A stretch of 35,461 bases of DNA from a virus (Duplodnaviria; Heunggongvirae; Uroviricota; Caudoviricetes), in the IMG/VR virus record IMGVR_UViG_2778261527_000008. One strand, written 5' to 3'. How positions within the stretch are numbered: the stretch's first letter is position 1; every line of letters starts with the position of its first letter. Positions 19,919-20,517 of this stretch are shown here, in pieces. The notes beneath the pieces are model-generated. The model saw nothing but the letters and a program-made list of their open reading frames with translations. It did no database searches and was not told where the DNA came from. The position numbers and the translations under genes were made by a program.

Positions 19919-20392
19919 ATGTCTCAACAATTTAAAGATATTTTTACTGGTGGTCTGGTAAGTCTGTTCTATCACGCTGATACCACTAACACCGATCTTG
20001 CTGATGAAGCATACGAAGAAATTAAAGAGTGTGCTGGTTTTCCTGAAACTGGTATCGAGCGCGGCACTGTAGAAGTTAAATCCTTCTCTTCTCAGTATAA
20101 CCGTAAGCTGGTAGGGAAACTGAACGTTCCTGATCTGACTCTGACCGTTAACTACATCCCAGGCGATGCGGTACATGAAAAACTGATCAAAGCTGCCGAA
20201 GACGGTACTCGTATTCAGATTAAAGTAGAATATTACGTTGACGCAGCAAAACAGACTGGTATTCGCACCGCTTTCAACGGCTTCATTTCTAAAGTTGCTA
20301 TGAACGGTGGCGATGAAGAAGTTGTAACCAAAGAGTTTACCTTCGCGGTGGATGGTGCTCCGCTGAAACAGCAAATCTTCACTGCCGGATGA
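19919..20392 (+). CDS. major tail (tube) protein
   Basis: 157 aa; position before chaperones and tape measure; tube-protein-like pattern ...TGIERGTVEVKSF...LTLTVNYIPGD... Confidence 0.6.
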   Translation: MSQQFKDIFTGGLVSLFYHADTTNTDLADEAYEEIKECAGFPETGIERGTVEVKSFSSQYNRKLVGKLNVPDLTLTVNYIPGDAVHEKLIKAAEDGTRIQIKVEYYVDAAKQTGIRTAFNGFISKVAMNGGDEEVVTKEFTFAVDGAPLKQQIFTAG

Positions 20393-20509
20393 ACTAACGA
20401 AGAACTTCCCGAACCGGAACCACAGCCGGAACATGAAGCGGTGGTGATTCCAGACGTAGAAGAAGTTACGGCGAAAGCCACAGCTAAACGAAGCCGCAAG
20501 GCTAAAGAT
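20393..20509 (+). other. in-frame post-UGA extension of the tail tube ORF (39 codons), candidate readthrough isoform
   Basis: open in frame from 20393 to TAA at 20510; encodes TNEELPEPEPQPEHEAVVIPDVEEVTAKATAKRSRKAKD; no start codon or RBS. Confidence 0.4.
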
Positions 20510-20517
20510 TAATTATA

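Follow-up and report, generated by a model that had tools for sequence, protein, structure and literature searches.

The genes for the major tail tube protein and the major capsid protein of a tailed prophage of Escherichia coli both end at a TGA codon followed by A, and in both the reading frame continues beyond this stop into a related, short C-terminal extension. The reading that we favour, and that sequence comparison makes probable, is of a portable readthrough cassette carried by both genes, whose leaky UGA-A would yield minor extended isoforms of the tube and capsid proteins. Such a cassette would comprise, in order, the leaky UGA-A, an acidic spacer rich in proline and glutamate, the motif V-T-AKATAK, a short basic tail, TAA stop codons and an intrinsic terminator. 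The stretch of DNA analysed here (the window; 35,461 nucleotides (nt), IMG/VR record IMGVR_UViG_2778261527_000008) is essentially one 35-kb prophage of Escherichia coli H2 (NZ_CP028733.1; 100% identity).

The tail tube gene and its extension

The major tail tube protein is predicted to be a protein of 157 amino acids (aa), encoded on the plus strand at 19919..20389 (to 20392 with its stop codon) and equivalent to the N-terminal domain of lambda gpV. It matches the Pfam family Phage_TTP_11 (PF16460) with 28.4 bits, exactly at the cut-off, and phrog_158 ('major tail protein') with E=1.9e-21; the gene is located 5' of two chaperone-like genes and an 810-aa tape measure gene. The label 'major' rests on this synteny, because a second tube-like paralogue is present at 15421-16254.

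The gene stops at TGA (20390-20392; 20390..20393 with the 3' A, plus strand) in the hexamer TGAACT, and the following 39 codons (20393-20509) are open in frame to the TAA at 20510 and encode TNEELPEPEPQPEHEAVVIPDVEEVTAKATAKRSRKAKD, the coordinates and sequence being as given in a preliminary description of this DNA. Two parts can be distinguished in this extension: an acidic Pro/Glu-rich spacer of 24 aa, TNEELPEPEPQPEHEAVVIPDVEE, with a net charge of -9 (20393..20464, plus strand); and the conserved motif VTAKATAK with the basic tail RSRKAKD, with a net charge of +5 (20465..20509, plus strand). Strong stops, TAA TTA TAA (20510..20518, plus strand), close the extension with in-frame TAA codons at 20510-20512 and 20516-20518, and these are followed by an intrinsic terminator, GCCCTGCC-TTAAT-GGTGGGGC-T6 (20517..20547, plus strand), which belongs to the repeated cassette, has a hairpin predicted by folding and is the top-scoring terminator-like site within 12000-22000. 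Of the three forward frames of the extension only frame 0 is open, the others having 2 and 4 stops. Since single open frames are common in shuffled sequence (the shuffled tube extension stays open in 19% of trials and the shuffled capsid extension in 9%), conservation of frame and stop, not the length of the open reading frame (ORF), was considered decisive.

The partner cassette on the capsid gene

The capsid gene (12517..14520, stop to 14523, plus strand) encodes a 668-aa fusion of a prohead protease, a scaffold-like region and an HK97-type major capsid protein, with Pfam Peptidase_S78 at residues 40-162, Phage_capsid at residues 410-664 and a match to phrog_617 with E=5.6e-93. Its cassette (14521..14655, plus strand) consists of TGA-A in the context tgaact, 42 in-frame codons encoding TPVEPSEPSPDLGEENLIPEPEEESQTVKAKATAKKQRKTKE, and TAA TAA at 14650-14655; the terminator that follows, GCCCTGCC-TAAC-GGTGGGGC-T6 (14658..14685, plus strand), is near-identical to the tube terminator. 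The two genes therefore share the architecture that had been claimed for them, with the same tgaact, an in-frame extension, a basic end and a terminator. A single pattern had also been proposed for the ends of both extensions: the last residues do match, 10 of the last 15 being identical (VTAKATAKRSRKAKD vs VKAKATAKKQRKTKE), but the regular expression as written needs a gap, as the capsid copy has an extra ESQT between EE and V. The basic tails of the tube and capsid copies, with net charges of +5 or +6, differ by synonymous and conservative changes. At the DNA level the copies form a direct repeat of 80 nt with 76% identity (14605-14684 / 20465-20544), and the coding pattern for AKATAK occurs at two sites only on the plus strand of the window, which are the two extensions (0.04 expected).

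The long capsid extension contains a strong 8-bp hairpin, CTTCCCCC-GATTT-GGGGGAAG (14545-14567), approximately 22 nt 3' of the UGA. It is nearly unchanged in the long variants (few single substitutions) and absent from a short form of the capsid cassette, and the tube cassette has no hairpin comparable to it; an effect on readthrough or on mRNA stability, confined to the capsid site, is conceivable.

Stop codon usage and natural controls

Among the 37 annotated genes of the prophage, 31 end in TAA, 5 in TGA and 1 in TAG, and TAA-T is the commonest tetranucleotide (16 genes). TGA-A is found at the capsid and tube genes only (2/37); these encode the proteins made in the largest amounts, for which a strong stop would otherwise be expected.

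Natural controls were provided by relatives without the cassette. In 34 E. coli genomes a more distant tube gene is present (65-75% nucleotide identity), with a match that ends short of the 3' end; in the 3 of these that were read, the tube gene has no extension and stops at a TAA-T immediately 5' of a terminator, and the capsid gene of the same three prophages retains TGA-A and the cassette. In syntenic prophages of Salmonella both the tube and the capsid genes end in TAA-T next to the terminator and have no cassette. The tube gene of an Edwardsiella relative also ends in TAA-T next to the terminator, and its capsid gene in TGA-T, after which only nine unconserved codons follow. The tube orthologue of Edwardsiella tarda (L030 9001-9528) is 175 aa in length, with a constitutive end ...HMNVIPEAVAAKEK and TAA-T, and this end may be a constitutively fused, shorter counterpart of the extension; the resemblance of ...NVIPEAVAAKEK in it to ...VIPEVEEVTAKATAK (E. 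coli extension part ...VVIPEVEEVTAKATAK) is too short a match to call homology.

Conservation of the stop and frame in relatives

Cassettes were compared across viral contigs, metagenome contigs and E. coli genomes (24 IMG/VR loci, 19 metagenome stretches and several E. coli loci). The prophage family is carried by about 1% of complete E. coli genomes (55-56/5,426); MEI003 and PSJ-22 are examples of lysogens other than H2. TGA-A opened the cassette in 99/99 occurrences from viral and E. coli loci (52 capsid and 47 tube, including some contigs fetched twice), in 21/21 metagenome occurrences and in 4 further E. coli genomes. Alignment of 39 distinct 36-nt stop contexts gave the invariant positions TGA A.T .....A GAA, and the codon 5' of the stop varied freely.

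In the first locus set there were 16 (tube) and 13 (capsid) distinct nucleotide versions of the extension, in which indels were only of 3, 6, 15, 18 or 33 nt; the length of the spacer thus differs among relatives through in-frame indels only. Across 42 distinct nucleotide versions frame 0 was open and frames +1 and +2 were closed; every relative bearing the cassette keeps the frame, and terminates the extension with TAA or, rarely, TGA. The motif is retained in the cassette copies as V-[TK]-AKAT-[AV]-K followed by a basic tail, and in 13 peptide variants the A, K, A, T, K, R and K of the motif and tail are invariant. The tail itself remains basic through many nucleotide changes (KKQRKTKE, KKVGRPPKAK, KRSRKAKD, KRGRKAKN and KRGRKPKE). 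At the tube gene the ratio of non-synonymous to synonymous substitution rates (dN/dS) was 0.12 over the body and 0.38 over the extension. The suggestion in the preliminary description that a C-terminal module shared by two structural genes reflects function rather than chance gains support from the TGA-A and frame conserved in relatives, the in-frame indels, the TAA-T controls, the use of TGA-A at only 2 of 37 genes and a hexamer identical to that of phage Q-beta (see below); a lack of conservation of the extension among relatives, named in that description as evidence against it, was not what we observed.

The cassette is so far known from E. coli strains and from viral and metagenome contigs only; two scans of the genomes of GTDB species representatives gave no match to the tube protein or to a 24-nt core of the cassette. 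When viral contigs were searched with a degenerate DNA pattern for the peptide, every true cassette belonged to this prophage family and followed either its capsid or its tube gene. The many other matches to the pattern were chance or unrelated C-termini (e.g. ...VTAKATVKKGxINKLFIVDIQA), and an AKATTK match within the window (1256-1273, minus strand) is coincidental and falls within the signal-peptide region of a secreted protein of the LprI family.

No version of the cassette with a sense codon in place of the stop was found in DNA scans of viral, E. coli and metagenome loci. An apparent 198-aa 'fusion' protein, P0001, proved to have a plain TGA at its locus, which the metagenome gene caller had translated as W. 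A profile of the 13 extension peptides searched against 5.8 billion proteins recovered only a mis-called 33-aa ORF (P0037), and an exhaustive phmmer search of 1.84 billion representatives gave the same single entry; the profile search missed P0001, so these protein-level negatives are weak and the DNA-level scans are stronger.

Exchange of the cassette between genes and its nucleotide core

Homology between cassettes begins exactly at the stop codon. At one locus (L002) the capsid gene is identical to that of the window up to the stop and is then followed by a different, shorter cassette, NNEELPEEIPVVTAKATAKKVGRPPKAK, with the switch exactly at TGA-A; and the cassette is retained on capsid genes that are divergent at their C-terminal end, with only about 38-41% identity to the window over the last ~76 residues. 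The first 20 nt of the tube cassette match the short capsid cassette, the KRGRKPKE type of capsid tail shares nucleotides with the tube tail type, and at another locus (L159) the tube cassette is placed before the other terminator type. Taken together, the swaps at the stop, the shared tails and the terminator of L159 indicate exchange of the unit [TGA-A, spacer, VTAKATAK, basic tail, stop], both among gene bodies and from one of the two genes to the other.

Within this unit a 19-nt core, GTTACGGCGAAAGCCACAG, is nearly invariant, synonymous sites included, in 32 distinct versions from both genes; in the window it is part of GTTA[CA]GGCGAAAGCCACAG (14608-14628 and 20468-20488), and it contains a GGC-GAAA-GCC mini-hairpin. 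Gene conversion might account for this near-invariance, as might a recombination anchor or an RNA signal; no complementary target for the core was found within the prophage. Strain STEC1575 (L157) has non-synonymous changes in both of its cores.

Proposed mechanism of readthrough

Judging from Q-beta and from UGA decoding in E. coli, most ribosomes would be expected to stop at the UGA of the tube gene and release the 157-aa protein, while a few percent would insert tryptophan via near-cognate tRNA-Trp and continue to a 197-aa isoform; the capsid gene would likewise give a 711-aa precursor isoform. The hexamer UGAACU is listed for Q-beta in a recent review, with 3-5% readthrough in E. coli (PMC13517186), and the coat gene of Q-beta ends UAC UGA ACU GCA, which is the same hexamer as at the tube and capsid stops here. 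Readthrough of UGA in E. coli, in which Trp-tRNA-Trp competes with release factors RF2/RF3, varies with temperature, with cyclic AMP, with the levels of tRNA-Trp and of RF2/RF3, and from cell to cell (PMC10570021). As neither a suppressor tRNA nor an Rfam family was found in the window and there is no downstream structure shared by the two sites, context-dependent leaky termination with insertion of tryptophan is the simplest mechanism. With Trp at the stop codon, the predicted tryptic peptides that would span the junction are QQIFTAGWTNEELPEPEPQPEHEAVVIPDVEEVTAK for the tube protein and VLHISAEWTPVEPSEPSPDLGEENLIPEPEEESQTVK for the capsid protein.

Position and possible role of the extension

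An AlphaFold (AF2) model of P0001 (198 aa, with TGA as W) has a confident core, for which the best PDB matches in Foldseek were the lambda gpV tube structures 8k36/7t2e/7t4f (E about 2e-7). Residues 159-198 of the model have a predicted local distance difference test (pLDDT) score of <50 and no secondary structure, and the extension is therefore predicted to be disordered. In lambda gpV the tube domain (residues 1-156) is followed by an immunoglobulin (Ig)-like domain that protrudes outside the tube, and removal of this domain lowers activity 100-fold; in SPP1, frameshifting adds an FN3 domain to a quarter of the tube subunits (3:1) (PMC8718954). Because the 157-aa protein ends where the tube domain of gpV ends, the extension should point outward, and by analogy with lambda gpV extended subunits could co-assemble with the others, their tails projecting from the tube. 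The C-terminus of capsid protein 10B of phage T7 displays peptides, and we assume that the capsid C-terminus is external in the present phage also. At 3-5% readthrough, roughly 5-10 such whiskers would be expected per tail and 10-20 per head.

No Pfam family matched the extension. The AT-hook (PF02178) was considered for the basic tail and rejected: neither tail in the window (KRSRKAKD, KKQRKTKE) matched it, and only the KKVGRPPKAK variants of relatives scored, at 13-14 bits and under the 17.4 cut-off. A cationic tip on an acidic spacer might make weak, reversible contacts with lipopolysaccharide (LPS), capsule, mucus or DNA, and low-copy, flexible, cationic whiskers on head and tail could have a role like that of the accessory Ig-like domains of other phages. 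The stop codon may have been kept since full occupancy would harm assembly. A more elaborate proposal is that the cassette is a mobile display module that recombines between structural genes and supplies a few cationic whiskers (AT-hook-like in some variants), the number of which reports the physiology of the producer cell, so that the virion population is mixed in its stickiness to LPS, capsule, mucus and extracellular DNA, with the core serving in addition as a recombination anchor or RNA signal; we regard this as doubtful.

Alternative explanations and points against readthrough

The main rival is a role at the nucleotide level, in which the cassette is an element of the 3' untranslated region (a terminator with a stabiliser, a processing site or a small RNA) behind the two most expressed late genes and the ORF is incidental. 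The near-invariance of the core with its mini-hairpin points this way, as do the reduced synonymous divergence (dS) of the extensions compared with the gene bodies, the near-invariant 8-bp hairpin of the long capsid cassette and the fact that the cassette usually moves together with the terminator. It leaves unexplained, however, why every indel is a multiple of three in length and each version is open in frame 0 alone, why homology starts precisely at the stop codon, why TGA-A accompanies the cassette and TAA-T its absence, and why the tail stays basic despite many nucleotide changes; in addition, the cassette also occurs before a different terminator (L159), and neither an Rfam family nor a complementary target in the prophage was found. 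On balance we consider a purely nucleotide-level element unlikely, and a dual role, of protein and RNA, possible. A related idea is that readthrough itself is regulatory and the peptide a by-product, with a ribosome at the extension stop masking the terminator hairpin and so altering downstream transcription or mRNA decay. The geometry would suit this, as the extension stop is 5-8 nt 5' of the terminator stem at both genes and the genes 3' of both are needed in much lower amounts, yet an arbitrary spacer would suffice for such a function, whereas VTAKATAK and the basic tail are kept in both genes. A few percent of readthrough would, moreover, barely change termination, and the occurrence of the cassette before a second type of terminator argues against it here too, and we therefore regard it as very unlikely.

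Expression of the extension as a separate small protein, through an internal start or termination-reinitiation, has in its favour the 33-aa ORF called within a capsid extension (P0037) and a GTG GTG within the tube extension. However, neither a start codon nor a ribosome-binding site is conserved, and the stop-overlapping ATG (GGATGAAC / GAATGAAC) is in another frame and disappears where the gene has a different last codon. Nor would this route account for the TGA-A rule or for a spacer that is conserved from its very first codon, next to the stop, and we consider it highly improbable. A dedicated route for decoding the UGA, by selenocysteine, a phage suppressor tRNA or a code in which TGA is Trp, is effectively refuted: the reading of TGA as W in P0001, which would fit it, was made by a gene caller at a locus with a plain TGA; all 37/37 genes are intact in genetic code 11, with TGA also ending three other genes; and there is no hairpin common to both UGAs, after which the sequence varies, and no selenocysteine insertion sequence or Rfam match. 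The only tRNA called in the window by ARAGORN, a 91-nt tRNA-Glu(ttc) (15176-15266, minus strand), is almost certainly a false positive, located as it is inside a 140-aa connector gene (14989-15411).

Several points nevertheless weigh against the readthrough cassette as proposed. Translation of the extension is proposed here by analogy with Q-beta and its incorporation into virions by analogy with lambda gpV, and one open frame of this length, taken alone, is unremarkable by chance. The tube cassette is missing in many relatives and hence is not essential; the spacer is poorly conserved; and the dN/dS of the capsid extension is high (0.68), a value inflated by mosaic variants. In the extensions dS reaches only about half its value in the gene bodies, which, together with the near-invariant core, could reflect a nucleotide-level function or gene conversion instead of protein constraint. 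RF2 is more active in non-K-12 E. coli, and readthrough may fall below the Q-beta figure in these hosts. The outward position of the capsid C-terminus is taken over from peptide display on T7 10B, and the adhesive role suggested for the whiskers is speculative.

Comparison with known systems

The closest parallel is the coat protein/A1 system of Q-beta, also an E. coli phage, in which a leaky UGA in the identical hexamer UGAACU (PMC13517186) produces, with no special tRNA, a minor C-terminally extended structural protein from the major one; the A1 extension, like those described here, opens with Thr followed by a Pro-rich linker. Q-beta differs in being a single-stranded RNA (ssRNA) phage with one such site and an essential extension of 196 aa that includes a folded domain, whereas the present case concerns a double-stranded DNA (dsDNA) tailed prophage with two sites (head and tail) and a peptide of 39-42 aa that is predicted to be disordered and is missing from the tube gene of many relatives.

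Among tailed phages, Listeria phages PSA, A118 and A500 resemble the present case in that the capsid (Cps) and tail shaft (Tsh) proteins both have recoded minor long forms (PMC5009743). These arise by +1 or -1 frameshifting at slippery or proline codons, whereas the extensions of the present genes continue frame 0, with both alternative frames closed; nor are the Listeria extensions described in that review as one shared module, while here the two are homologous copies of one cassette. SPP1 gp17.1*, T3/T7 10B and the C-terminal domain of lambda gpV similarly represent non-essential external C-terminal additions, often on a fraction of the subunits (PMC8718954; PMC5009743). Such additions are mostly folded Ig-like/FN3 domains of ~90 aa (T7 10B is not Ig-like) that result from frameshifting or constitutive fusion; the addition proposed here is instead a short polyampholyte peptide, without a Pfam match, that would be added by stop-codon readthrough. 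To our knowledge, the minor long forms of capsid and tail proteins known in tailed phages are all made by frameshifting or constitutive fusion, and among phages the ssRNA Q-beta group is the only textbook case in which stop-codon readthrough is utilised. Literature searches gave no account of UGA readthrough at the capsid or tube genes of tailed phages, and decoration of a DNA phage particle by a leaky-stop cassette does not seem to have been described.

If confirmed, the cassette would represent natural use by a dsDNA phage of the Q-beta signal (UGAACU) at two structural genes, placing a low-copy peptide on head and tail. It would also point to a non-Ig, charge-based accessory adhesion device on the virion surface and offer a ready-made, naturally tuned, low-valency display signal for the engineering of E. 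coli siphoviruses. Isoforms of this kind are missed by gene callers, and of the billions of predicted proteins in databases only two entries, both gene-calling artefacts, show the extension; a TGA-A in place of the TAA-T of relatives, together with a conserved downstream frame, provides a genomic rule by which further cases could be sought.

Prophage setting and gene context

In the E. coli H2 chromosome the prophage (locus L035, NZ_CP028733.1 2523565-2559160) is flanked on both sides by annotated halves of hicB, with hicA intact alongside. The prophage thus splits hicB, and the HicA toxin gene would be left beside a disrupted antitoxin gene. A large serine recombinase of 559 aa is encoded on the minus strand at 32281-33960.

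The late region is lambda-like by its Pfam and phrog matches, and comprises genes for terminase gpA, a lambda-family portal, the protease-scaffold-capsid fusion, connector proteins, the tube-like paralogue, a 1176-aa fibre, the 157-aa tube protein, a gp38-like adhesin, two chaperone-like proteins and the 810-aa tape measure. A megablast search of the region against 50,697 phage genomes gave no related phage isolate at the DNA level, and in the same phage collection tblastn found no close protein-level relative of the tube protein; the distant matches included a hypothetical protein of a 141-kb phage record (44% identity) and Vibrio phages. In the Glu/Lys-rich, scaffold-like region of the capsid fusion (13073-13311) a 47-nt repeat occurs three times, spaced 93-99 nt.

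The two chaperone-like genes (21110-21418 and 21448-21789) are located 5' of the tape measure gene in a layout like that of lambda G/T. The second gene uses the -1 frame of the first, a frame that opens no earlier than 21403, so that any frameshift of the G-T type would be confined to the last five codons (GAA AAC GAG GTA AAG TAA). No canonical X XXY YYZ heptamer was found in this overlap (21403-21418), where a single-tRNA slip at A-AAG beside the stop is possible.

The product of the second tube-like gene (15421-16254), of 277 aa, combines a phrog_158 tube domain at its N-terminus with additional C-terminal sequence. The gene is located 3' of the connector genes and just 5' of the fibre gene, and the protein may form a collar or ring to which the long fibre is anchored. 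The gp38-like adhesin gene (20561-21067) lies 3' of the true tube gene, and the fibre and adhesin modules differ among relatives. The fibre of 1176 aa (16332-19862) is gp34/gp37-like with an S74 chaperone domain at its C-terminus; a 92-nt direct repeat in its gene (16554-16798; 153-nt spacing, 76% identity), with shorter repeats besides, suggests a coiled-coil or repeat shaft.

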